Shown one piece after another: positions 9,264-50,534 of a stretch of 64,000 nt of DNA. The translations under genes and the position numbers were made by a program. Positions within the stretch are counted from its first letter, which is position 1, and the number at the start of each line of letters is the position of its first letter. Source of the DNA: Felis catus (lineage: Eukaryota); contig NC_058368.1 in NCBI RefSeq assembly GCF_018350175.1, positions 55,740,001-55,804,000 on the forward strand. Reading direction: 5' to 3'. The notes beneath the pieces are model-generated. The model did no database searches. It was not told where the DNA came from and saw only the letters and a program-made list of their open reading frames with translations.

Positions 9264-9424
9264 CAGGGGAGGGTCAGAGAAAGAGGGAGACACAGAATCT
9301 GAAACAGGCTCCAGGCTCTGAGCTGTCAGCACAGAGCCTGAGGCGGGGCTCGAACCCACAGACTGTAAGATCATGACCTGAGCCCAAGTCAGACGCTTAA
9401 CCGACTGAGCCACTCAGGCGCCCC
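9179..9424 (-). mobile_element. CAN-SINE (SINEC_Fc2/3-like) with 16-bp TSD
   Basis: TSD tcatttggttatatat at 9163-9178 and 9425-9440. Confidence 0.97.
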
Positions 9425-9794
9425 TCATTTGGTTATATATTAAGAAACTTGATAAACTGTTCCTAAATATGTGGAAGAAAAAATCACAAATAGCTAGGAC
9501 AGTTATAAACATAATATATATAAACAGGTAAAATTCTCTACCAAATATTAAGACACTTCAAAAAACCATAGCAATGAAAGCATGTCCTCATTTCAGGATC
9601 ACAGTCAAGGTTTGGCTGTATAAATTGTGAGTTTAAATGGAAATTATGTAGACACTATATCTCACGGGTATCACATGAGGCTTGCCTAATTTGTGTCTTC
9701 ACAGAAATGTAGTGAGATATGTAGTAGTGATTAAGCCAATGTAATGTTGCTAATCAGTTCTAAAATCAGTATTTTTGGTTTAATTCATTTTTTA

Positions 9795-10261
9795 CATTTA
9801 GTAGTTTTCCATGCTGCTGTATGAAACTACCAAAAATTTAGTAGCTTAAAAAACCATAAGTTTATTGGTTTACATTTCTGTAGAAATCTGGCATGGGTCT
9901 CAGAAGTGTTGGCAGACCTAGGTTCCTTTTTGGAGGGTCTAAGTGCAGGGTCTTTCCAGATTCTAGAGGCTACCTACACTCTTTCTTACATTGTCAAAGG
10001 CAGTAACAATGTCTCTCTGTGACCATTCTTCAATAGTCACATCTGTTTATGACTCTGAACTCAGCCAGAGAATGGCCTCCAATTATAATGACCCATGTGA
10101 CTAGATTTAACTCTTTGAATAATCCAAAATAATTTCCCCACCTCTGTGTTCATAACTTAATACCATCTAGAGAGACATTTTTGCTATGTGAGGCAACATT
10201 TTTTCTGGTTCCAGAGGTTAGGTTGTGGACATTTTAGGGGAGATTTTATCTACCTTTAACA
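9795..10261 (-). mobile_element. MLT1 (MaLR) solo LTR
   Basis: gctgctgta..aactaccaaaaatttagtagcttaaaa start; ttccagattctagaggc and ggttccagaggttagg motifs. Confidence 0.75.
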
Positions 10262-11991
10262 TATGGTGTCAGTTAAGGTGATAAAATGAGTACCTAATAT
10301 GAATAGGAACAGTGGTCTCAGAAAGTTCTTCACTACAACGCAAGAAGCCTCAGCGTTTTTAGATCTGTGGATTTTCTCCTTAGTGCAGGGGTGTGAAGTC
10401 TCTTGACTCTCCCAAAGTGTGAATGTCGTCTTTCACGAGCACCTCTGACCTTGCTTTGACCAAAACTCTTGCGAGATGCCATCTACAGTTTTACCGTAGG
10501 ATTCCTGGATCTGATCATAGTAATATTTTCAGAAAGTTTGGAGCCTAATTGAGACTGATAATGAACAATTTAAGTCATAGTTTTATTCCAATTTATGTGA
10601 TTTTGTTTTCATTAGAAGCACCTTACTTCTTGCATATGGATAAGACAGATGGTTGCCTTTAAATAGTGTTGATATAAACTTAGATGATAAAAGTGTAATA
10701 TTTTGTCAGAGAATCAAGCATATCCAGAGTATATCAATGACATGAGCTCTTAAAAAAAATCAAATACATGAAATTGATGATGGGCTGGGGGTGAGTGTGT
10801 TAGAGGATGGAAAACCTGATGAAGCAAACAAACATTTGGAGAGAACATACTTGAATAAGCATACTGCAAGTTAAGAGGTAGAATTAGAAGATAGCTTGTT
10901 TTTGAGTTTGTGATTTAGATGATTGTTTGAGAGATGAAAAATTTAACCTCACAACTGGAAATGGGTTGTTGAGGAGAATGGAAGAGAAAAATTGTGATGG
11001 AAGGTCTATTTTCATGTATGCTTAAATAAGGTATGTTAATGAGAGGAGTTTTAATATAGAAGGATGTGATACAGAGCTTGAGCTATCAAAGGAGGATATA
11101 GGTTTAGCAGAAAGTAAATCAGTAATCCTTATATAAAGGTCATGGGAACATCATAGAAACATAACATGTTACTCAGTGGAACCAGAATTTTTAACACAGG
11201 ATGGAAAAGCAATATTTTGAAAATAATGTTCGGAAGCAAGGGTGATACTAGTGCCACTTCTGTACTCTGAGTTATATGTAGCATGCAAAAAACTAATACT
11301 TTCAGGTGTTAAGGGAAATAAGAACCAAGTGATAGTTTAATAAAATCAAGGAGTAACATTCAGGGGAACACTTGTTGAACATAAATAGAATTTTCAAAGT
11401 ACCTTCTGGAAAAGTTAGTCAGTTGGAGGGAAAGGAGCTATTAAATACATCTAAATGCACAGATCATGCAATAGGCAATTTAAATTAAATACATGATAAC
11501 GAATATGGTACAGGCACCAAACAACCAGGACAGATACTGAATAAAATAGCCAGTAGAGTCATACTCATTTTTAGAAGCTGAACATTGGCGTTAGAGTTCT
11601 GTTCTAGAAATGATAGAAAACTTGCACTTAAGACAGTGTCATAAAAAAAAAATTGAAAGACAGGCATGTATATTGTAGTGGAGAAGGGAACACACAGGCT
11701 TAAGTTGATGAACCCAAGATGGTATTAACCATAATCTCATGGATATCTACAGTGATTGTTGCCATTTGTGTCAGCAGTGTGCAAACACAGTAGAATCAGA
11801 TAGTTTTTCTCTCTTTAGAAGCATCTAGCAGTAATTTTAAATGAAACCACCTAGAGAACTACTGGTAAAGCTACTCCTATGGTGATAGGAAAATTTTAAA
11901 GGCCTATTGATTGATGAGGATTCATAGCTGCTTCCCTGATTAAAATAGAAGAGAAATTATCTAAATATTGGTTATTCTTTCCAACTGTACC

Positions 11992-13537: not shown

Positions 13538-14114
13538 AGAAGGCATTATTATTTTTAATCTGTGCTTACTTCTTAACATACTTCAATCTGAGGTCTTCCT
13601 TCATCTCTTACATAATATCTTTGCAAAGTCATTATTGATCTCTATTTTTCTCTTTAAAATTGTACCCTTAGGAAAATAATTTTCCTAAGAAATTTATTTA
13701 TTGTCATTGCTCCAACTACTACTTGTATTTCAAATGTTAGCTAATCTGAAGTACGGGCTTAGATTGACATTTTTTGCAGGCAAGTATTTTGTTTTTTTTT
13801 TTTTTGTTTTTATTTTTGTTTTTTTTTTTTTGTGCTGATCTGTATAACCTATTTTTTTCATTTGTTTAAATTAATTTATTTTTTTAATTTTTTTAAAATA
13901 TGAAATTTATTGTCAAATTGGTTTCCATACAACACCCAGTGCTCATCCCAAATGGTGCCCTCCTCAATGCCCATCACCCATTTTCCCCTCTTCCCCGACC
14001 CCCATCAACCCTCAGTTTATTTTCAATATTTAAGAGTCTCTTATGGTTTACCTCCTTCCCTCTCTGTAACTTTTTCTCCCCCTTCTCCTCCCCCATGGTC
14101 TTCTGTTAAGTTTC

Positions 14115-17100
14115 TCAGGATCCACATAAGGGTGAAAACATATGGTGTCTGTCACTCTTTGCCTGACTTATTTCACTTAGCATAACACTCTCCAGTTCCA
14201 TCCAAATTGCTACAAAAGGCCAGATTTCATTCTTTCTCATTTCCAAGTAGTATTCCAATGTATATATAAACCACAATTACCTTATCCATTCATCATTTAA
14301 TGGACATTTAGGCTCTTTCCATAATTCGGCTATTGTTGAAAGTGCTGCTATAAACATTGGGGTACAAGTGCCCCCTATGCATTAGCACTCCTGTATCCCT
14401 TGGGTCAATTCCTAGCAGTGCTATTGCTGGGTCATAGGGTAGATCGATTTTTACTTTTTTGAGGAACCTCCACACTGTTTTCCAGAGAGGCTGCACCAGT
14501 TTGCATTCCCACCAACAGTGCAAGAGGGTTCCCATTTCTCCACATCCTCTCCAACATCTATAGTCTCCTAATTTGTTCATTTTAGCGACTCTGACCAGTG
14601 TGGGGTGATATCTCAGTGTGGTTTTGATTTGTATTTCCCTGATGAGGAGTGACGTTGTTCATCTCTTCATGTGTCTGTTGGCCATCTGGATGTCATCTTT
14701 AGAGAAGTATCTATTCATGTCTTCTGCACTTTTTTTCATTGGATTATTTATTCTTCGGGTGTGGAGTTTGGTGAGTTCTCTATAGATTTTGGATACTAGC
14801 CCTTTGTCTGATATGTCATTTGCAAATATCTTTTCCCATTCCATCAGTTGCCTTTTAGTTTTGTTGATTGTTTCCTTTGCAGTGCAGAAGCTTTTTATCT
14901 TCATGAGGTCCCAGTAGTTCATTTTTGCTTTTAATTTCCTTGCCTTTGGAGATGTTTCAAGTAAGAAATTGCTGCGGCTGAGGTCAGAGAGGTTTTTTTC
15001 CTGGTTTGTCCTCTAGGGTTTTGATGGTTTCCTGTCTCACATTCAGGTCCTTCATCCATTTTGAGTTTATTTTTGTGAATGGTGTAAGAAGGTGGTCTAG
15101 TTTCATTCTTCTACATGGTACTGTCCAGTTCTCCCAGCAACATTTGTTAAAGAGACTGTCTTTTTTCAATTGGAAAAAATTCCTGCTTTGTCAAAGATTA
15201 GTCGACCATACATTTGTGGGTCCAATTCTGGAGTCTCTATTCAATTCCATTGGTCTATGTGTCTGTTTTTGTGCCGATACCATGCTGTCTTGATGATTAA
15301 AGCTTTGTAGTAGAGGCTAAAGTCTGGGATTGTGATGCTTCCTGCTTTGGTTTTCTTCTTCAAAATTACTTTGTCTGTTCGAGGTCTTTTGTGGTTCCAT
15401 ACAAATTTTAGGATTGCTTGTTCTAGCTTTGAGAAGAATGCTGGTGCAATTTTGATTGGGATTGCATTGAATGTGTAGATAGCTTTGGAAAGTACTGACA
15501 TTTTAGCAATATTTATTCTTCCAATCCATGAGCACATAATATTTTTCCATTTCTTTGTATCTTCTTCAATTTCCTTCATTAGCTTTCTATAGTTTTCAGC
15601 ATACAGATCTTTTACATCTTTAGTTAGGTTTCTTCCTAGGTATTTTATGCTTCTTGGTGCAGTTGTGAATGGGATCAGTTTCTTTATTTGTCTTTCTGTT
15701 GCTTCATTGTTAGTGTATAAGAATGCAACTGATTTCTGTACATTGATTTTGTATACTGCAGACTTTGCTGAATTCATGTATCAGTTCTCGCAGACTTTTG
15801 GTGGAGTCTATCAGGTTTTCCATGTATAGTATCATGTCATCTGCTAAAAGTGAAAGTTTGACTTCATCTTTGCCAATTTTGATGCCTTTGCCAATTTTGA
15901 TGCCTTTGATTCCCTTTTGTTGTCTGATTGCTGATGCTAGAACTTCCAACACTATGCTAAACAACAGCAGTGAGAGTGGACATCCCTGTCATGTTCCTGA
16001 TCTCAGCTGGAAAGTCTCAGCTTTCCCCATTGAGGATGATATTAGCTGTGGGCTTTTCATAAATGGCTTTTATGATGTTTAAGTATGTTCCTTCTATCCC
16101 AACTTTCTCGAGGGTTTTTATTAAGAAAGGATGCTGAATTTTGCCAATTGCTTTTTCTGCATTGATTGAGAGGATCATATGGTTCTTATATTTTCTTTTG
16201 TTAATGTGATGTATCACGTTGATTGATTTCTGAATATTGAATGAGCCCTGCAGCCAAGGAATGAATCCCACTTGATCATGGTGAATAATTTTTTTATATG
16301 CTGTTGAATTCGATTTGCTAGTATCTTGTTGATGATTTTTGCATCCATATTCATCAGGGATATTGGCCTGTAGTTCTCTTTTTTTGCTGGGTCTCTGGTT
16401 TTGAAATCAAAGGAGTGCTGGCTTCGTAGAATGCGTCTGGAAGTTTTCCTTTCCTTTCTATTTTTTGGAATAGCTTGAGAAGGATTGGTATTATCTCTGC
16501 TTTAAAAATCTGGTAGAATTCCCCCCAGGGGAGCCATCTGATCCAGGACTGTTATTTGTTGGGAGATTTTTAATAACTGATTCAATTTCTTCACTGGTCA
16601 TGGGTCTGTTCAGATTTTCTATTTCTTTGTGTTTGAGTTTGGAAGTGTGTGAGTGCTTAGGAATTTGTCCAGGTTGTCCAGTTTTTTGGCATATAATTTT
16701 TCATAGTATTCCCTGATAATTGCTTATATTTCTGAGAGATGGTTGTAATAATTCCATTTTCATTCATGATTTTATCTCTTTGGGTCTTCTCCCTTTTCTT
16801 TTTGAGAAGCCTGGCTAGAGGTTATCAATTTTGTTTATTTTTTCAAAAAACCAACTCTTGGTTTCATAGATCTGTTCTACAGTTTTGGTTTTTTTTTAGA
16901 TTCTGTATTATTTATTTCTTCTCTGATCTTTATTATTTTTCTTCTGCTGCTGGGTTTGGGGTATCTTTGCTGTTCTGCTTCTGGTTTCTTTAGGTGTGCT
17001 CTTAGATTTTTGTATTTGGGATTTTTCTTGTTTCTTGAGATAGGCCTGGATTGCAATGTATTTTCCTCTCAGGACTGCCTTTGCTGTATCCCAAAGCATT

Positions 17101-18208
17101 TGGATTGTTGTGTTTTCATTTTCATTTGTTTCCAATTATTTTTTAATTTCTTGTCTAATTGTCTGGTTGACCCATTCATCCTTTAGTAGGGTGTTCTTTA
17201 GCCTCCACGCTTTTGGAGGTTTTCCAGACTTTTTTTCTGTGGTTGATTTCAAGTTTCATAGCATTGTGATCTGAAAGTGTGCATGGTATGACTTCATTTC
17301 TTGTGTACTTATGAAGGGCTGTTTTTTGACCCAGTATATGATCTGTCTTGGAGAATGTTCCATGTGCACTGGAGAAGAAAGTATATTCTGTTGCTTTGGG
17401 ATGCAGAGTTCTAAACATATCTTTCATGTCCATCTGATCCAATATATCATTCAGGGCCCTTTTTTCTTTATTTATTCTCTGTCTAGGTGTTCTATCCATT
17501 GTTGTAAGTGGAGTATTGAAGTCTCCTGCAATTATCACATTCTTATCAATAAGGTTGCTTATGTTTGTGATTAATTGTTTTACATATTTGGGGGCTCCTG
17601 TATTCAGTGCATAGACATTTATAATTGTTAACTGGATAGACCCTGTAATTATTATATAATGCCCTTCTTCATCTCTTGTTACAGCCTTTAATTGAAAGTC
17701 TAGTTTGTCTGATATAAGTATGGCTACTCCAGCTTTCTTTTGACTTCTAGCAGCATGATGGATAGTTTCCATCCCCTCACTTTCAATCTGAAGGTGTCCT
17801 CAGGTCTAAAATGAGTCTCTTGTAGGGGCGCCTGGGTGGCCGACTTCGGCTCAGGTCATGATCTCATGGTCCGTGAGTTCAAGCCCCACATCGGGCTCTG
17901 TGCTGACCTCTCAGAGCCTGGAGCCTGTTTCAGATTCTGTTTCTCCCTCTCTCTCTGCCCCTCCCCTGTTCATGCTCTGTCTCTCTCTGTCTCAAAAATA
18001 AATAAACGTTAAAAAAAATAAGAAAAATACTTTATAAAAAATAATAAAATAAAATGAGTCTCTTGTAGACAGCAAATAGATGGGTCTTGTTTTTTTTTAT
18101 CCATTCTGATACCCTATGTCTTTTGGGTGGAACATTTAGTCCATTTACATTCAGTGTTATTATTGAAATATACGGGCTTAGAGTCAGTGTGATATCTGTA
18201 GTTTTCAT
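14115..18208 (-). pseudogene. L1 ORF2 (endonuclease/reverse transcriptase), disrupted by frameshifts, stops and a SINE
   Basis: TLNVNGLN, IAGDFNTPL, SDHNAMKLE (EN); LADDMILY (RT, FADD position); [18 protein letters not shown] (Cys-rich C-terminus). Confidence 0.95.
17825..18050 (+). mobile_element. CAN-SINE inserted in the L1 ORF2 EN region, 17-bp TSD
   Basis: TSD aaaatgagtctcttgta at 17808-17824 and 18051-18067. Confidence 0.97.
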
Positions 18209-18255
18209 GCTTCTAGTGGTGTCTCTGGTACTTTGTGGTCCTTGCAACATTTAAC

Positions 18256-19139
18256 TCACAGAGTCCCCCTTAGCATATCTTGTAGGCTGGTTTAGTGGTG
18301 ATGAATTCCTTCAGTTTTTGTTTGTTTGGGAAAACCTTTATCTCTCCTTCTATTCTGAATGACAGACTTGCTGGGTAAAGGATTCTTGGCTGCATATTTT
18401 TCCTGTTTATCACATTGAAGATTTCCTATCATTCCTTTCTGGTATGCCAACTTTCAGTAGATAGGCCTGCTACTACCCTTATGTGTCTACCTTTGTATAT
18501 TAGGGCCCATTTATCCCTAGCTGCTTTCAGAATTGTCTTTATCCTCGTATTTTGCCAGTTTCACTATAATATGTCATGCAGAAGATCGATTCAAGTTACG
18601 TCTGAAGGGAGTTCTCTGTACTTCTTGGATTTCAATGCCTGTTTCCTTCCCCAGGTCTGGGAAGTTCTCAGCTATGATTTGTTTAAATATACCTTCAGCC
18701 CCTTTCTCTCACTCTTCTTCTGGAATTCCTATGATACGGATATTGTTCTATTTGATTGCATCACTTAGTTCTCTAATTCACCCCTTGTACTCCTGGAATT
18801 TTTTATCTTTTTCTCAGCTTCCTCTTTTTTCCATAATTTTATCTTCTAATTCATCAATTGTCTCCTCTGCCCCTTTAATCTGTGCAGTGGCCACCTCCAT
18901 TTTATTTTGCACCTCATTTATAGCATTTTTAAATTCATCATGAGTATTTTTCAGTCCCTTGATCTCTATAGCAATAGGTTCTCTGCTGTCCTCTATGCTT
19001 TTTTCAAGCCCAGCGATTAACTTTATGACTATTACTCTTAATTCTTGTTCTGTTATATTGGTTAAATCGGTTTTGATGAATTCATTAGCTGCTGTTAGTT
19101 CTGGAATTTCTCTTGAGTAGAATTCTTCCGTTTCATCAT
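18256..19139 (-). pseudogene. L1 ORF1 (coiled-coil RNA chaperone), frameshifted
   Basis: Starts ATGATGAAACGGAAG; heptad-rich FKNAINEVQNKME...AEETIDELEDKIME; ends LQDMLRGTL-stop. Confidence 0.85.
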
Positions 19140-21249
19140 TTTGGCTAGTTTTCTGTCCCTTATGTGTTTTAAAAGCTTGTGTACTCTTCACCTGCGAGCA
19201 CTCCTATATTAAAGGAGGGTCATATAGTGTCCAGGGCCTGGCCCTTCAAGAGGTGTTTTTTCAGGTATTGTTACTTGCTTCCTGTTGTTGTGGCTTTGGT
19301 TATTTTATTACCCTACTTGTAGTAATATTTTGGACCCTCACTAGATGTGCTTCAATTTGTTCCTTGGAGTAGCCCTGTAAAGGAAAACAGACAAACAGGA
19401 GACAAAAACACACAAACACACAAACAAATAACACCAACAAACAAATAAAGAAAAACAAAAAACTAAAGACTAAAAACAAAAAACCCCAAAACACTGACTA
19501 CAAGTAAAGAAGAGGGTGGAGGTGGTGCTGATGGAAAAGCACATACAAAGAGAGAAATGCGGGGGTGGGGGGGGCTGGGGTGAGAAAAAATAAACATTGA
19601 TTAGGCAGAGAGACTAAAAGGCTTAATCCAGAGAGAGAGAAAGGACAATAAAGAAGGAGGCGGGGAAAACGAAAGGAAGATAAAATACCCAGACAGAGAG
19701 AAACTATATGGCTTTATTATTCCAGAGAGAGAGAGAGAGGAGTGTAAAAAAAGGAGGTGTAGAACATATATCAAGACAATAGATTAAATATATCTGTTTA
19801 GAGAGACCAATAACTAGAGTAACCAGCCCACGGGAGGGAAGAGATAAGAAGGAGAAATGGGGGCAGGGAGGGAGAATATATCTATATATCCAGAATTGAC
19901 CTAGAGTTAATCCAGGCAATGCTGCATCGCTTGTTGGGAGTACCTGTCCACAGGGTCTGTGCCACTGTGGTGGATACGCAGTTAACCCAGCACAAAGGGG
20001 CGTGGTTTGATGTAATCTGAACCCACCTCCACTGGAGTGGATCCCTGAGGATCCAGGAGTGATCCCCGAGGCCCTGCCTTGGTGGTGATGGTCAGGGAAG
20101 GTGGGGGGGGGATGGTGATCCCCCAGTCTCTTCTCCACCAAGCCGGACCTGGTGGACTCTGTTTGAGTCGTCCTCACTGTGCCGCAGGCACAGATGAGGC
20201 AGTCCTTCTCGCTCTGCCAACTCCCCTGACCCAGCACTTGGCTAGGATCCAAAGTCCCGCTCTGTGCGCTCTGGCACTGGGGAAGTGCCTCTCAGTGCTG
20301 TGATATGTGGTACCAGCTGGCTTTGTCTGTGCACCTTCACTTCAGGGAGGACCACCTTCTCCTGCTGCGGACTGAGCGGCTGCCCTCCCTGGGAGCCACC
20401 TGTGTGGCCATCGCAGGCAGGCTTTGTCTTTTCCCATGGCACTCCAGGAAAACGGTGGCCTTATCCTCCTGCAGACTTAGCCCTCGGCCTAGCCACTGTG
20501 GTGTGTGGTGAATGCAGGCAGGTTCTGTGCTATTGTGCAGCCCTCCAGGGAGGGAACCACTTTCTCCAGCTGCGGACTGAACCCCTGACCTGCAACCGCA
20601 CCAAGGCCTGGCTCCCCTCCTCCCAAGGTGCGAGAACAGGGAGCCGGCTCCAGTCTGAAGAAAGCCCCACAGTTAGAGATCTGATCCCTCTCAGTATCAG
20701 TCCGAGGTCTTTCTCCTGTCCAGATATAGCCCTGCACTTCCCTAGCCACTCTCTGCAGGCAAGCATTTTGGATCATCACCATTTTTTTTCAGATTATCTG
20801 GATGTCTTATATAAAAACAATCCCATTATCTTTCTCTGAAGTATTAATTTTACTTTACTTTTATTAAGTTTTGTATATATATATATCCACTTCAACCCAC
20901 TTTTTTAAAATCACTTTTAGCATTCCCTTTCCTTTCCTTTATTTACAATAATACATATCAGACAAGGACCGACAAACATACAATTTCTTAGCACACTTTG
21001 CACAAATGTGCTTCTACTCATAGACCCATTTTCCTGCTGTATAACCCTGTGCATTTGCCACAGGCATTTTATATTCTACAAATGCCTACCCCAAATCTGT
21101 TTCTTCTGTTCATCTTCACTTTTCTTTCTCTGACTTCATCATCTTTTACTCTCCCCAGTCAGAAATTTGTCTTTAACTCTTCCGTTTTTAAAACTTTTGA
21201 CATATAGTCAATAAGTTTGCTTGTTTTGCTTCTTTATTACATAGTAAAT

Positions 21250-33179: not shown

Positions 33180-34275
33180 CTTAATATTTTAATCTAGATT
33201 TTTCCTCATCCTCTCATGTTTAACCTATCAAAATTAAACTCCATATTTTGCTCCCAAAACTGTTCCTTAGCAGATCTATCCCCTTCTAGCAAATTACATT
33301 GGCATCTATCCAGTTAATTAGAAACCTAATAATAACTCATACTTTTTCCCTCTTTCACCTCCCCCATCCATTACATTAGCAATTCTTGTCCTATTTTTAT
33401 TGAACTGTCTGCATTTTATTGCAATTAAAATAATCAAAGCCACCATACTTTCTTCCTTTTATTCATGTTCCATTCAGCATTACCCATCTACAGGAAGTCA
33501 TCTTAAAAATATATGTGGGGGCCCCTGGGTGGCTCAGTTGATTAAGCATCTGACTCTTGATTTTGGCTGAGGTCATGATCTTAGGATTTGTGAGATCAAG
33601 CCCCGCATAGGTCTCTGTGCTGTCAGCACAGAGCCTGCTTTGGGGTTCTCTCTCTCCCTCTCTACCTTTCCCTCGTTCATGCTCTCTCTCTCTCAAAAAT
33701 AAATAAGCATTAAAAAATATATGTGATGTGATAGTGTTACTCCCTTTCTTAAATCATTTGATGGTTTTCATTTTACTTTTTAAAGTCTAAACTACCTATG
33801 CTGACTTATGAGAATCTACCTTCAACTGCTTTTCCCAAATCAACACTTAGACCCTTTTACTTGGTAAGCTCTTTCTTGTCAAAATGCCAGAATTCTGTTC
33901 TTTGAGCATCAGGCTCCTCTACTCTTTACAATTTGTGAGCTCACTGTTCTGTCTTGGAAATGCTGTTTTACAGTATTCTGAGCACAGTTGACTCCAGCTT
34001 AATAGTTACCAGTGTCTGTGTTGTCTTCTGAAAGATTCTAGCCCACTGCAAACTGCAGACCTACTTAAGTAACTGTTTCTTTTTTTGCAGACTCAACACC
34101 CTGCTTTTCCTTTCCTTGATAGTTACTTTCAATCTAATTTTGCTTGCTTGTAACCTTTTTTTTTTTAAATTTCTTGTAGCAACACCTAAAAGCTAGGCTC
34201 TTATAGGACAAGGATGCTTTTCTGGCTTGTTTCATCATCTATTGCTAACACTTAGCAAAGATACTAGTATATAGT
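33180..34275 (+). mobile_element. L2 relic, interrupted by a SINE
   Basis: cccccatcca, ttactccctttcttaaatc, ggacaaggatgct...aacacttagcaaagatactagtatatagtag 3' end. Confidence 0.55.
33517..33712 (+). mobile_element. CAN-SINE with 12-bp TSD
   Basis: aaaaatatatgt at 33505-33516 and 33713-33724. Confidence 0.95.
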
Positions 34276-34277
34276 AG

Positions 34278-34760
34278 TGAAGGAAACCAGAATGGGTCAC
34301 CCTAAAATTATTGACATTAAAAATTCTTTTGAACTGAAGGCAAATAAGAAGCAGCAAATACAAGAGAAGCTCTGTCTACTTTCTCCTTTTCTGCCTAAGG
34401 AAGGGTGTAGATTTTCCCTCTACTGGAGACAAGACTCATCAGCCCAGAGATGGCACCAGAGGAATCTGCAAACATACGTTTACTCCATTTGTTCCTTATC
34501 ATATACTTACCACAGTTTGCTGCATTTGGAAGCCTAAAACTACTTTCTTTTGTCCTGCCATTTCTCTATAAATGCCTTGTTCTTTGTTGAAGATGTTATA
34601 TAAGCTGGAGTTTTGACTCCCTGTTTTGAGTTACTTTTTGTTTAGGTTTCTCCTGCATGATGGCTACTGCACTTGTTAATGAACTGTTTTTCTCTTATTA
34701 ATCCTTTTGTCACAGTATCAGGCAAAAATCTAAGAATAGTAAAGTTTTGTTTGTCCTACA
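34278..34760 (+). mobile_element. MER34-like ERV1 solo LTR
   Basis: tgaaggaaaccagaat...tttgaactgaaggcaa...tcctaca; near 4-bp TSD gtag/atag. Confidence 0.72.
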
Positions 34761-34836
34761 ATAGATGTAATTGTTTGCTATCTCTGCTGTAAGAAAACTA
34801 CCACAAATTTAGTGGCTTTTAAAAGAACACAAATGT

Positions 34837-35033
34837 GGGACGCCTGGGCGGCTCAATCAGTTGAGCATCTGACTTCAGCTCAGATCATGATATCGCGGTT
34901 CGTGAGTTTGAGCCCCGTGTTAAACAGCTCAGAGCCTGGAGCCTGCTTTGGATTCTGTGTCTTCCTCTCTCTCTGTCTCCCTGTCCCCTGCTCATGCTCT
35001 GTCTCTCTCTGTCTCTCAAAAATAAATAAATGT
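34837..35033 (+). mobile_element. CAN-SINE lacking its poly(A) and full right TSD
   Basis: gggacgcctgggcggctc...caaaaataaataaatgt, then an abrupt switch to the duplicated segment. Confidence 0.93.
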
Positions 35034-35532
35034 CACTATCATTTATATTTCCCTTACTATGGACCAGGCAGTGTACTAAGCATTTTCTATTAGTGTAGTT
35101 TAATATAGTTAGTACAGTCTCTCATTCTCAAATCAACCCTAAACGGTAGGTAGTATCTTATCATCACTCTTTTACGTATGAATCACAGCAAGTTTCAACA
35201 ACTGCCCCTAAGTGACAAAGCCAGAACTCTTGTGCAGAGTAGTGCTCTTGGCCATTATACAGTATTGTCTCTCATATACCTAGGATTGTTCCTGCTTAGG
35301 CAAACTAGGGAAAAAGCCAAAGTAGCTATTTTTTATAACCGTTTGTGAATACATTTTTAGTTTGTTATAACTGTCCATCTATGAATTGACTTCACCATTG
35401 CTTAGCATATTTCCACACATAAGTTAGCAGCTCAGGCATCAAATATTTCTCCTTTTAAGAAAAATTTCATCTACTTCAGGTAAATTTTCCCCATGTTCAA
35501 CAACCAAAGAAATATTTTATTTGCATTCTTCT
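35034..35532 (-). repeat. Inverted-repeat arm A (derived copy, 499 bp)
   Basis: Reverse complement of 39288-39786; no mismatch found on base-by-base reading. Confidence 0.97.
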
Positions 35533-36429
35533 GGAGGTTGAAAGTCCAAAATTAGTATAAGTGGGCTAAAACTGATAGCCTGTTAGCAAACAGGACTGAA
35601 TTTCTTCTAGAGGTTAAAAGAAGAGTCCATTTCCTAGACTTTTCCATCTTCAAGAAGCTGCCCCATTCCTTGGTTCATGGCCCAAACTTCATCTGCATCA
35701 GCACTGAGCTGAGTGTTCATCATGGTACCATCTCTCAGGTGCTTTTTCTTTTGCCATCCCCTTCCACTTAGAAGGACCCTTGTGATTCTGTTAGGCCCAG
35801 CTGGATAATCCAGGATAATCTCCCCATCACGGGGCCAGCTAATTAGCAACCTTAATTTTATCTGCACCCTTGTTTCTCCAGTGTCATGTAACTTTACGCA
35901 TTCACATGTATTGAGAAGCAGGACATGTATATATTGGGGGACCATTATTCTGCTTACCACAGTCGGTAATCATAAGTCTGTTTGGTTTTGTTTTTCAATA
36001 AGTGAAGAAGTAATAAATTTTCTTTTAAATACCTGTTAAGTCACTACTATGAATGTTTGAATAAGTGAGTTAGGTGACATTACATTCTTTCTAAGCAAAT
36101 ATTCAGAATTAATAAAATTTTATTTTTATGTACACATTCTTTATTTGACAGTATTCTTCCCCCAAATAAACAAAAACAGAATTATTTTTAGCGTATGAGG
36201 CAACATAATGCTGTGCGCAGGTTTGGGTCCTGAGGAAAAACAGAGCTGAGGTTGAAATGTTCCCCAAAATTATTCAAGTGATTTGTAAAATCGTGGCTAA
36301 TTCATAAAGCCTTTCTATTTCTGATTTTTTTAACATACGAAATAGGGATATTATCATTTATAATACTTCAGTCCTATTTGGGAAATACTTTACAGAGGGT
36401 GGGTGTCAATAAGTACTGAAAGTTTCAGG

Positions 36430-36564
36430 AACCAACAACTGTATGGTCAACTAATCTTCAACCAAGCAGGAAAGAATATCTAGTAAAAAAAGACAGTCTC
36501 TTCAACAAATAGTGTTGGGAAAACTGGACAGCTGACATGCAGAAAAATGAAACAGGACCACTTT
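36430..36564 (+). mobile_element. Isolated internal L1 ORF2 fragment (~135 bp)
   Basis: tatggtcaactaatcttc...gacagtctcttcaacaaat...gggaaaactggacag; homologous to ~15090-15220 of the big L1. Confidence 0.85.
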
Positions 36565-38369
36565 GTAAAGTGACTTTTTTCATGAAGTTAGTGATTTGGC
36601 AGGTTGTATCTGTCAAAAGTAGACTATAGGAAAAGTCACTAAAAAGATTACTTCAGTTCTCTAATACCCATTCTTTCTTCTCAAATGTTGGCTTCATTTC
36701 CTTTAACATCTGCTCTGAAATAATTTACCATTTCAGCTCTGTTTAACATCTAGCGTTTGTGACTCATTCTGCTTTTCTTAATCACTTCCAAAAAAGTAGT
36801 CATAATCTTCCTCAATTGCTTGGGGGAGAGGAAGTTGAACACATTTATTCCTTTTCATCACAATTTAAACTTGATGCAAATCATGTTCATAAAAATAATT
36901 TTCAAATGATGGCAAGTTAAAACACTTATTTTTACACCTCCTGTGATAAGAATGCATTGTATCTATATTTTTAAAGATTTCAAGGAGACAAATGTTATAA
37001 TTTCTATTACCCAATCCATTCTTCATTGTTAGCCTTTTCATGTGACCTATGAAACATCGGAAGTGCCATTAAAATCTCTTTTCTATGTGGGCATGGGTAT
37101 TTTCACTATGTATACATAGACATACACCTAAGTTTGTGTTTTTACTACCTTTATATGTGAAGTTTATTTCACTTATCTGTTCTACAATTATTGGTTTTTT
37201 AGTTTAAGGGCCTTTTTTCTCAGTTGTACTTTTTCTTTTTTTCATATTTGAGTAATAAATGTACACAATTTTGAAGTCATATAGTGTAATGAGCTTATAA
37301 AATTTCAGTAGATGTTCGCTGGCCTCTTTTTCTCAAAACATCATCCCAATGTCTAGAGGCTGTACTTTTCGTTATTTTAACTCTTGCCATACACTGCTGC
37401 ATTTTATTTACCATGTTATACATTATCATTTGGCTTCCTGTCATAGAAGATGGGGGTTATAGCTTTCTTATATTCTTAGCCCTTCCCTTTCATGAAATGT
37501 CAACATTGTGTTTGTACAGAAAATCACTTGTTTTGATATTGTCATTCAGTGAGTGGTACTTCATTTGTATTTTCTTTATTATACAACACGGGCTGTTAAA
37601 ATTGCCTAATTTTTTTCATATTTTATGTTTCATTTTAACATTAGTCATCAGCATTTGTTTAAAAAGTACTCAATATAATTTTATATATAGTCAATCCTCT
37701 CAAATATTTTCACTAGTTTTTTGGGGGGAGGTTGAGGTGGGTTGTATCTGATTGTCTTTTGTTTGTTGTGTGTTTTCAAAAAAATTCTTCTGTGTCTTTC
37801 AGGTGTCTCTCTCCAACCAACTTTAGTTTTGAGTTTCTATTAGGACTCCTGTAAAACTTCTGTCTCAACCTCTCCTAGTGTTGACAGTACTGAAATTCAC
37901 TTTATCTTTATAATTGTATAGATATCCACAACAAAAGTATATAATAGCTTACATGAAGGAACAAGTCTGTTATTTCTTACCGTTTTTCTTTAAAATAACC
38001 AGATGCAGAGTTTATAAATTTATTGGAAGAACTTTATATTTTGTAGTTTTCATTTGAAATTTATTATTAACCATAATAAATAAAACTTACTAGTAAAACT
38101 AGTATCTTAATTTTACATAATGATATTTTCGAGAGTACTTCCATCAGAATGAAGTAATCATCACATTTTAATATATATTTTATATTACATTTCAATATCA
38201 TTAGAATCATCATATGATGTTTGCTTTCAACTTAAAGCTTTTGTAGTGCTATTTCCATTCATTTTAGTATTGAAACCCCCATTCTGCATAAAGCCAGTTC
38301 TCTATTTATGAATTTCCTGGAACAACCTCAAGTAGACACTTAGAACCAGTTGAGATGGTGAAATTTTTT

Positions 38370-38641
38370 CATTTCTTTTTTTCTTTTTTCCTTTCTTTTC
38401 TTTCTTTTGTTTTTCTTCTCTTCCCTTCTCTTTTCCTTTTATTTTTTCTTTTTCTTCTCTTTTCCTTTGTTTTATTTATTCATTTATTTATTTATTTATT
38501 TATAATTTAAAATTTAAATTCCAGTTAGTTAACAAACAGTGTAACAGTAGTTTCAGGAGTACAATATAGTGATTCAACACTTGCATGTAACACTCGGTAC
38601 TCATCAAAGCAAGTGTGCTCCTTAATCCCCATTACCTATTT
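38370..38641 (-). mobile_element. 5'-truncated carnivore L1 3' end with expanded T/CT-rich tail
   Basis: ttccagttagttaac...tttcaggagtacaatatagtgattcaacactt. Confidence 0.8.
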
Positions 38642-39287
38642 ATTTTCTGAATTATTTTATTCTCCCGTTCTCTGTGACAACAATTTCACTTCTTTTCAAA
38701 AATTCAGAATCTCTTACTTCCTTACTACTCACAACTACGCACTTTGCTTTCTACTTCATGGAGATACTAGAAACTATAGAAAAAGTATTACAGTATTTTG
38801 CTTGCCTGCCCCTGAGATACTGTGGAAACCTATGGTACCTACAATTTTGTAACATAAATGGTCACAAAAATATAATTGTTGACATTTTAAATATTAACAA
38901 GATATTTTGATGCTAGAAGTTTCAAAGCTGTTTTAATGTTATCTATTCAAAGGGAAATGCAAGAGATTAAGATTTGGAATAGGTAATAGATGCACAATTT
39001 TATCATAAAGTAATCGAGAATGATTGTAAAAGTGGAATTGTAACAACAGATCCAACATAATACCTCCATCATAAGTACATTTTAGGTACTTTAGTTTTCG
39101 GAAAACTATGAGATTCTTAAAATATATTCCATCACATTATCCATACTGCAGACACCCGGCAAAGTCTTAGAGTACGTTTATAGTTATTCACAGTTTGAAG
39201 ATGTTGCTCTGGAATATGGAGAATTCATAGAGTTTTAATAATGAGTATTTTCTTGGCTCAAACTATTTGGGAAGAGGCAATACCAGT

Positions 39288-39786
39288 AGAAGAATGCAAA
39301 TAAAATATTTCTTTGGTTGTTGAACATGGGGAAAATTTACCTGAAGTAGATGAAATTTTTCTTAAAAGGAGAAATATTTGATGCCTGAGCTGCTAACTTA
39401 TGTGTGGAAATATGCTAAGCAATGGTGAAGTCAATTCATAGATGGACAGTTATAACAAACTAAAAATGTATTCACAAACGGTTATAAAAAATAGCTACTT
39501 TGGCTTTTTCCCTAGTTTGCCTAAGCAGGAACAATCCTAGGTATATGAGAGACAATACTGTATAATGGCCAAGAGCACTACTCTGCACAAGAGTTCTGGC
39601 TTTGTCACTTAGGGGCAGTTGTTGAAACTTGCTGTGATTCATACGTAAAAGAGTGATGATAAGATACTACCTACCGTTTAGGGTTGATTTGAGAATGAGA
39701 GACTGTACTAACTATATTAAACTACACTAATAGAAAATGCTTAGTACACTGCCTGGTCCATAGTAAGGGAAATATAAATGATAGTG
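39288..39786 (+). repeat. Inverted-repeat arm B (donor copy, 499 bp)
   Basis: Identical in reverse complement to 35034-35532; the contained MIR continues past 39786 here only. Confidence 0.97.
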
Positions 39787-39815
39787 TTTATAATAGTATT
39801 AGTAGTAGTAGTAGT
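39555..39815 (+). mobile_element. MIR
   Basis: tataatggccaagagcac...gtaaaa..gatgataagatactaccta...gcttagtacactgcctggtccatagtaag...aaatg. Confidence 0.75.
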
Positions 39816-40204
39816 ATACAGTGTATACCAACAGAAATATAAAACACATAAAATTATATGCATATATGTAGTACACATATATATTATCTATAATACTGTA
39901 TGTATTAAACTTACACATAACATTGGTTTCTTATTATATACATGAAAACTACTCAGTTACCTAAGAAAGTTTTTAATGTGGTCTCCACAGTTATCTGGTT
40001 AATAAGAAGTGTTTAGGTACTGAATGTTTCCTGGGTATCTAAATTTCTACTGTTAAGATATGGCTAGATTTGGAATGCAGCTCAGTCAATTTAATTGATC
40101 AGTTATTATTTGAATAATTGTTTAATCTTTCAAACTATAGATATTTCAAAACATAAGACTCAGGAGAGTTTGTTTTAATTATAACTAATAAGTCCCTATT
40201 TTTT

Positions 40205-40405
40205 TTTTAAATTTTTTTTAACGTTTATTTATTTTTGAGACGGAGAGAGACAGAGCATGAACGGGGTAGGGTCAGAGAGAGGGAGACACAGAATCTGAAG
40301 CAGGCTCCAGCACAGAGCCCGACGCGGGGCTCGATCTCACTGACCACGAAATCATGACCTGAGCCGAAGTCGGCCGCTTAACCGACTGAGCCACCCAGAC
40401 GCCCC
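40205..40405 (-). mobile_element. Fairly young CAN-SINE with 15-bp TSD
   Basis: aagtccctatttttt at 40190-40204 and 40406-40420. Confidence 0.97.
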
Positions 40406-48779: not shown

Positions 48780-49290
48780 TTAAAACAAAAACATCAAAAC
48801 TGAATCATAATAAAATTATATTATGTAAACATATGTTATAACCTAAAACATCACTAGAGATAAATTTATAGTATTATAACTATATACTTGAAAAATGAGA
48901 GAATCAACGCTTTTAGTTTCTACCTTAAGAAATCAATTAAGAGTAAATTAAACACCAAGTAAGTGGAAGGAGGGGAAACAGTAAAAATTAAATCAGAAAT
49001 CAGTGAGGCAAAATCAGCAAACCGCTAAATATGTTCTTTGAAAGGTTAGTCATGTTTATTAATCCCTAGTAAGGTTAATAAGAAAATATTACATATAACT
49101 TTGTGTCAAAAATATTCAACAGTTCAAATTCTACACACACATACACACACAGATGGAAACTTTGAATAGATTGTTACCTGTTAATGATACCAATTTTGAT
49201 ATTTAAAAAACTTCCCACAAGAAAACCCCGGCCCTATTGGCTTTATTGGTAAAGTCTATCAAATACTGGAGAAGGAAAAAGTACTCATAC
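48780..49290 (+). mobile_element. Old L1 ORF2 internal fragment
   Basis: ttctaccttaagaaa...gttctttgaaag...aaacttcccacaagaaaaccccggccc. Confidence 0.6.
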
Positions 49291-49356
49291 ACTCTTATGG
49301 AAAGCTTTAAAATAACAAATTTGGTATCTTTAACAGATAGCAAGCTATTCAAATTT

Positions 49357-49358
<2 letters not shown>

Positions 49359-49402
<44 letters not shown>
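49359..49402. repeat. (GT)n microsatellite
   Basis: Directly visible. Confidence 0.95.
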
Positions 49403-49403
<1 letters not shown>

Positions 49404-49485
49404 TGAATTTGAACTGTTGAATATTTTTGACGCAAATTTGTATGTAATAGATGGTTATTATTACCAAAATATCAAATAAAAATTT

Positions 49486-50534
49486 TATTTTATTTTATTT
49501 TATTTTATTTTATTTTATTTTATTTTATTTTATTTTATTATTTTATTTTATTTTACTTTATTTTAATATATGAAATTTATTGTCAAATTGGTTTCTATAC
49601 AACACCCAGTACTCATCCCAAAAGATGCTCTCTTCAATGCCCATCACCTCCCCTCCCTCCCCTCCCTCCCATCCCCCCATCAACCCTCAGTTTGTTCTCA
49701 GTTTTTAAGAGTCTCTTATGCTTTGGCTCTCTCCCACTCTAACCTCTTTTTTTTTTCCTTCCCCTCCCCCATGGGTTTCTGTTAAGTTTCTTAGGATCCA
49801 CATAAGAGTGAAAACATATGGTATCTGTCTTTCTCTGTATGGCTTATTTCACTTAGCATCACACTCTCCAGTTCCATCCACGTTGCTACAAAGGGCCATA
49901 TTTCATTCTTTCTCATTGGCATGTAGTACTCCATTGTGTATATAAACCATAATTTCTTTATCCATTCATCAGTTGATGGACATTTAGGCTTTTTCCACAA
50001 TTTGGCTATTGTTGAGAGTGCTGCTATAAACATTGGGGTACAAGTGCCCCTATGCATCAGTATTCCTGTATCCCTTGGGTAAATTCCTAGCAGTGCTACT
50101 GCAGGGTCATAGGGTAGGTCTATTTTTAATTTTTTGAGGAAGCTCCACACTGTTTTCCAGAGTGGCTGTACCGGTTTGCATTCCCACCAACATTGCAAGA
50201 GGGTTCCCATTTCTCCACATCCTCTCCAGCATCTATAGTCTCCTGATTTGTTCATTTCGTCCACTCTGACTGGCGTGAGGTGATATCTGAGTGTGGTTTT
50301 GATTTGTATTTCCCTGATGAGGAGTGACGTTGAGCATCTTTTCATGTGCCTGTTGGCCATCCAGATGTCTTCTTTAGAGAAGTGTCTATTCATTATTTCT
50401 GCCCATTTCTTCACTGGATTATTTGTTTTTTGGGTGTGGAGTTTGGTGAGCTCTATATAGATTTTGGATACTAGCCCTTTGTCTGATATGTCATTTGCAA
50501 ATATCTTTTCCCATTCCGCTTTAGTTTTGTTGAT
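49486..50534 (-). mobile_element. Young 5'-truncated felid-type L1 (~1.05 kb) with (TAAAA)n tail and 12-bp TSD
   Basis: ORF2 C-terminus open over 49791-50534; TSD aaataaaaattt at 49474-49485 and 50535-50546. Confidence 0.96.

Follow-up and report, generated by a model that had tools for sequence, protein, structure and literature searches.

The inverted pair and its setting

The window, meaning the whole stretch of 64,000 nucleotides that was analysed, is mammalian DNA, rich in AT and laden with repeats, among them a broken L1 and at least 13 copies of a tRNA-derived SINE. The locus under study comprises two inverted arms around a spacer, a truncated SINE and the two parts of an LTR-like relic (Table 1). 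Elsewhere in the window, the long broken L1 occupies approximately 13850–20750 on the minus strand, with reverse-transcriptase and endonuclease Pfam matches in separate frames; it carries a SINE at approximately 17826–18050, flanked by a 19-nt repeat, and over its 3' kilobase it is 87% similar to a second L1 piece, 49516–50534. A short tandem array lies at 1250–1430; its AT-rich unit measures about 23 nt and breaks down into shorter ones.

Table 1. Features of the inverted pair and its immediate surroundings (window coordinates)
Feature	Position	Strand	Description
LTR-like relic, 5' part	34762..34832	+	aligned to paralog 9793-9859, 54/67 identical, score 66 vs shuffle maximum 33
tRNA-derived SINE	34837..35033	+	3' end cut; without A-tail and without target-site duplication
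Arm A	35034..35532	+	likely the derived, inserted inverted copy; exact reverse complement of arm B, within the LTR-like relic
LTR-like relic, 3' part	35533..35975	+	start of the spacer; same orientation as the 5' part
Spacer	35533..39287	.	3,755 nt; ancestral orientation relative to the left flank; short L1 fragments
Arm B	39288..39786	+	likely the native donor; spacer-to-arm B join present in contigs of 4/4 runs

The original prediction of a perfect 499-bp inverted duplication around a 3.75-kb spacer was borne out: in a comparison of the whole window, arm A and the reverse complement of arm B differ at 0 of 499 positions. An exact match of this length is far beyond chance expectation. Among exact inverted matches in the window, a 46-nt (AT)n run comes next in length, and the 24 others of the 25 longest inverted pairs reach a complementarity of only 71–90%. 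The identity ends sharply on both sides of the arms, and a search for decayed homology in their 300–400 nt flanks found none (scores of 31 and 23 vs shuffle maxima of 38 and 41). It had also been claimed that the identity extends to CpGs; this holds, as the arms are identical, but it carries little weight given that the arm (35% GC) has just three of them. Part of the arm content we take to be a MIR by resemblance; its continuity past the outer end of arm B, sought in five comparisons with three candidate regions of the window, stayed at shuffle level throughout. Within the spacer, 36431–36564 is a 79% match to the window's L1.

The window holds another, older inverted pair, 49069–49222 and 49293–49464, with 129/149 identical positions and a 70-nt spacer; one of its arms has an expanded (TG)n run. 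Its sequence resembles a fold-back or template-switch duplication that has aged.

The arm DNA is apparently non-coding. The Pfam scan covered 73 frames of the window (71 of the 98 listed and two more) and gave matches in the L1 at 15.7–19.2 kb and nowhere else, apart from one below the cutoff at 40.6 kb. None of the 30 frames that lie between 34743 and 39942 matched a Pfam family, a test that short exons would escape. No Rfam family was found in the arms or the spacer, and the sole match in the window is a tRNA on a sister copy of the SINE at 9335–9419. A single arm folds no better than its shuffles, 94 of 100 of which fold as well.

Arm A interrupts older repeats

The 5' part of the LTR-like relic, presumably of the MaLR/MLT1 type, and its 3' part are separated by the SINE and arm A, and the two align in order to one paralog elsewhere in the window. 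The evidence for the 3' part comes from 35641–35975, which aligns to positions 9953–10284 of that paralog (198/310 identical, score 57 vs a shuffle maximum of 40), while neither arm A nor the far end of the spacer scores better against it than shuffles do. As the relic keeps its order across the left flank and the beginning of the spacer, the spacer is unflipped and retains its ancestral orientation.

The SINE that abuts arm A, which we assume to be of the carnivore Can-SINE type, is incomplete at its 3' end. The A-fraction in the 25 nt past the end motif is 0.20, the lowest among 13 copies (0.32–0.72 in the others), and its best flanking direct repeat measures 4–5 nt. A flanking repeat of 7–19 nt was found in 10 of the 12 other copies; for an eleventh, the automatic procedure gave 5 nt and a hand-set head 19 nt, and the remaining one, a partial copy, has 4 nt. 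The lack of both hallmarks implies that the SINE lost its A-tail and its target-site duplication at the point where arm A starts. The SINE had been described as visibly diverged, in agreement with its identity to two other copies in the window (171/203 and 152/176).

These surroundings bear on two further routes to the observed arrangement, a staggered-break inversion with a flipped spacer and a chimera of SINE and arm A made by L1 and inserted as a unit, which together are extremely unlikely. Staggered breaks flip the spacer and leave an inverted duplication at each of its ends, and inverted arms flanking a spacer are indeed the signature seen here; the relic order, however, continues from the left flank into the left end of the spacer, so that the flipped spacer of such an inversion is lacking, which speaks against this candidate. 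The direct contact between SINE and arm A is what an L1 chimera would give, but no direct repeat of at least 7 nt links the head of the SINE with the start of the spacer, neither end of arm A has an A- or T-run, and the SINE is about 15% diverged whereas the arm is 0% diverged.

Evidence from sequencing runs

A search of sequencing runs with 629 sampled words of 33750–40150 listed 24 runs, all from one organism; the runs are ranked by their likeness to the window, so that the sample says nothing about allele frequency. Four of them are on record as Illumina; contigs that lack a library record make up the other 20, and none of the 24 is recorded as long-read. Twenty of the 24 runs, from 12 studies, carry 0.93–0.94 of the sampled words, and 0.94 is the maximum in any run. 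This ceiling may reflect masked repeats or fixed differences of the window from the organism of the runs.

Contigs were placed on 35400–35740 for four of the 24 runs, one each from four studies. In all four, a contig (105 nt in three runs, 705 nt in one) covers exactly 35503–35532 and continues beyond it as the reverse complement of 39258–39287 (30/30), which is the join of spacer to arm B. The contig of the arm itself terminates exactly at 35532 in three of the four runs, and none is displayed in the fourth. Logan contigs are described as containing each 31-mer once, after simplification heuristics of the SPAdes type (PMC12424806). Since 31-mers are unique in these contigs, the assembly graph has a branch wherever contigs break off while overlapping by 30 bases. 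In graph simulations, two copies of the arm produced a break at 35532 and one copy produced none; one copy combined with an unpopped SNP at 39287 yielded junction pieces of 61 nt, unlike the 105 or 705 nt seen. Because the observed junction pieces are longer than the SNP would predict, and unsplit, a second, different sequence enters the inner end of the arm in four independent samples.

The arm contigs are 920, 938 and 938 nt long and thus run past the outer end of the arm. If they continue through arm B into the right flank, their ends fall at 40207/40225, within the T-rich tail of the SINE that follows. An unsimplified graph with two copies predicts a break at 499 nt, at the outer end, where the arm contigs are unbroken. 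Short links are pruned by assembler heuristics, and the likely reason for the unbroken outer end is that such a link, leading into the high-copy SINE tail, was removed by graph simplification. On the far side of the break, contig records on 35533–35740 number zero in all four runs, with a filter that hides some records, and are uninformative on either allele. The ratio of arm to spacer contig depth was 1.29, 1.24 and 0.94 in three runs, with 1.0 expected for no copy, 1.26 for one and 1.52 for two; the values are mixed, and depth provides no copy number here. The contigs of three of the four runs also stop at approximately 39213, 75 nt inside the right end of the spacer; the window contains no second copy of the 30-mer at this point, and the contig ends there are probably due to a common SNP or indel.

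The original prediction had cautioned that an assembly artefact must be excluded. In such an artefact, arm B would have been misplaced as arm A, for instance during gap filling or by a chimeric read. The complete identity of the arms would suit such an error, as would the continuity of the arm contigs across the outer end, and neither junction of arm A is directly present in the contigs, placed on a stretch that takes in the inner junction alone. The convergent break exactly at the inner end in four independent studies nevertheless demands a second sequence leading into the arm. Furthermore, the window contains no N, and the flanks keep a colinear order, the loss between them being small and clean, with no fold-back. 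On this indirect graph evidence from four runs, an artefact is decidedly unlikely.

Direction of copying and mechanism

The asymmetry between the two arms reveals a probable polarity. Arm A cuts into the SINE tail and the LTR-like relic; for arm B, reads show the join with the spacer. Arm B is therefore likely the donor, and arm A an inserted inverted copy that came with a small deletion at the target. This likely polarity was overlooked in the original prediction. With L and R for the flanks and S for the spacer, the simplest history suggested by the sequence would be L-S-B-R -> L-B'-S-B-R, with the loss of tens of bases. The lost piece would comprise the SINE tail, the target-site duplication and about 0–16 bases of the relic. 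Divergence of the paralog leaves the place of the inner junction, and with it any microhomology there, ambiguous: 35533 corresponds to 9864 under four scoring schemes, with weak alignment blocks, vs 9880 by eye. There is no microhomology at the outer junction of arm A.

It is quite probable that one recent germline event gave rise to arm A as an exact inverted copy of arm B, cutting the SINE tail and the LTR-like relic. Most likely, a broken or stalled end would have arisen in or near the A-rich tail of the SINE; the freed 3' end would then have copied 499 nt of the other strand at a distance of 3.75 kb, and the copied end would have rejoined its own template beyond a lost piece of a few tens of bases. 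The route may be template switching during replication (FoSTeS/MMBIR) or synthesis-dependent end joining, which are not distinguishable here. The description of Mako attributes DelInvdup-type events mainly to MMBIR, citing earlier work (PMC9510932).

Age of the arms

The original prediction offered a very recent duplication or an older one that is kept identical by gene conversion between the arms. The per-year mutation rates given for the cat, 2.3e-9 from pedigrees and 1.54e-9 from divergence (PMC9290555), serve as a proxy for ageing the arms. At these rates, 0/499 differences translate into a 95% upper age of 1.31–1.95 Myr, and the chance of finding no difference after 12 Myr is at most 1e-8. 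A recent duplication is thus supported, and we infer an age below about 2 Myr.

The second would have a gene-less 499-bp pair predate the split of several related species and stay letter-perfect by arm-to-arm conversion or recurrent flipping of the 3.75-kb spacer, which is very improbable. The break at the inner end in four of four runs agrees with it to the extent that the allele may be common or fixed, although these runs were chosen for their likeness to the window. However, even a common or fixed allele requires no gene conversion, because zero differences fit any age up to about 1.3–2 Myr. The identity also reaches the last base, with uneroded edges, and the decay of the older pair to 129/149 indicates that inverted pairs can age in this window. 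In addition, the palindromes known to convert, as described for sex chromosomes, are defined by arms longer than 8 kb and mostly carry genes (PMC8327919). The present locus resembles them in its inverted arms of more than 99% identity around a spacer; it differs in its 0.5-kb arms, in the absence of any gene found and in a clear distinction of donor and copy. At 499 nt, its arm length falls outside their range.

Comparison with known systems

A recent, one-step inverted copy has ample precedent. In the structural variant map from phase 3 of the 1000 Genomes, inverted duplications are reported to account for 54% of the inversion sites that were characterised (229 in all); nearly all of them are shorter than 1 kb, with the other copy within 5 kb, and they usually have no link to retrotransposition (Sudmant et al. 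2015, PMC4617611). The locus agrees with this description on each point: the inverted segment is 499 nt long, 3,755 nt lie between the arms, and arm A has neither A- or T-runs at its ends nor a flanking direct repeat. The genome here is non-human, and the match to the class is one of sequence criteria. What had been singled out as the strongest unexplained structure of the window hence fits a common class of structural variants as published (PMC4617611).

The arrangement also has a name in two variant-calling schemes. ARC-SV designates an inverted duplication that is interspersed and comes with a deletion as AD'CDE (bioRxiv 10.1101/200170), and DelInvdup is its counterpart in Mako (PMC9510932). 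As these sources lay it out, the order is the same as observed here, namely flank, inverted copy in place of a lost piece, spacer, donor and flank, and the loss at the site has its equivalent in the missing A-tail and target-site duplication of the SINE. The locus departs from AD'CDE in that the lost piece would amount to tens of repeat-derived bases and in that no gene or regulatory element is known to be affected. Taken together, the locus has the look of a real and recent inverted duplication, with a local template and a small deletion at the target, of a kind already known.

Templated sequence insertions (TSIPs) provide a further comparison. Class 1, which is mediated by L1, is defined by a poly-A tract together with a target-site duplication of at least 5 bp at each of the two junctions (Onozawa and Aplan 2016, PMC5110952). 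The one shared 5-mer at the locus lies away from the junctions of arm A, poly-A is absent, and the lack of poly-A and target-site duplication argues against an L1-mediated insertion. A class 2 insertion would be an RNA or cDNA patch at a double-strand break, its donor being near by chance or through local transcription. The absence of target-site duplication and poly-A and the small deletion at the site are shared with this class, but such patches are described as coming from distant regions (PMC5110952). Here the donor is local, at a distance of 3.75 kb, and in inverted orientation like the proximal class (PMC4617611), and arm A does not qualify as a class 2 patch, an origin with very little probability. 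Among the matches listed from the felid literature, the term 'inverted duplication' is absent; the locus has no name, and its absence from print is not implied.

Significance

Nothing in the locus points to a function, and the event was presumably neutral. Some expressed inverted duplicates have been proposed as hairpin RNAs (PMC5398296), and nothing links the present locus to those described there. A 499-bp RNA duplex may form if the region were transcribed from end to end, and the perfect arms may permit recombination-driven flipping of the spacer, both of which are speculative. The locus would gain importance if it were true that both arms are old and co-evolve across species. Conversion of the arms, if it did take place, would mean that concerted evolution reaches arms some 16 times shorter than the cut-off of 8 kb, and would provide a minimal natural locus for measuring it. 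Read instead as the recent inverted copy favoured here, the pair is of little importance, one further small proximal inverted duplication. It can be of use as a marker of lineage or population, and it is a site where short-read callers would call a false inversion.
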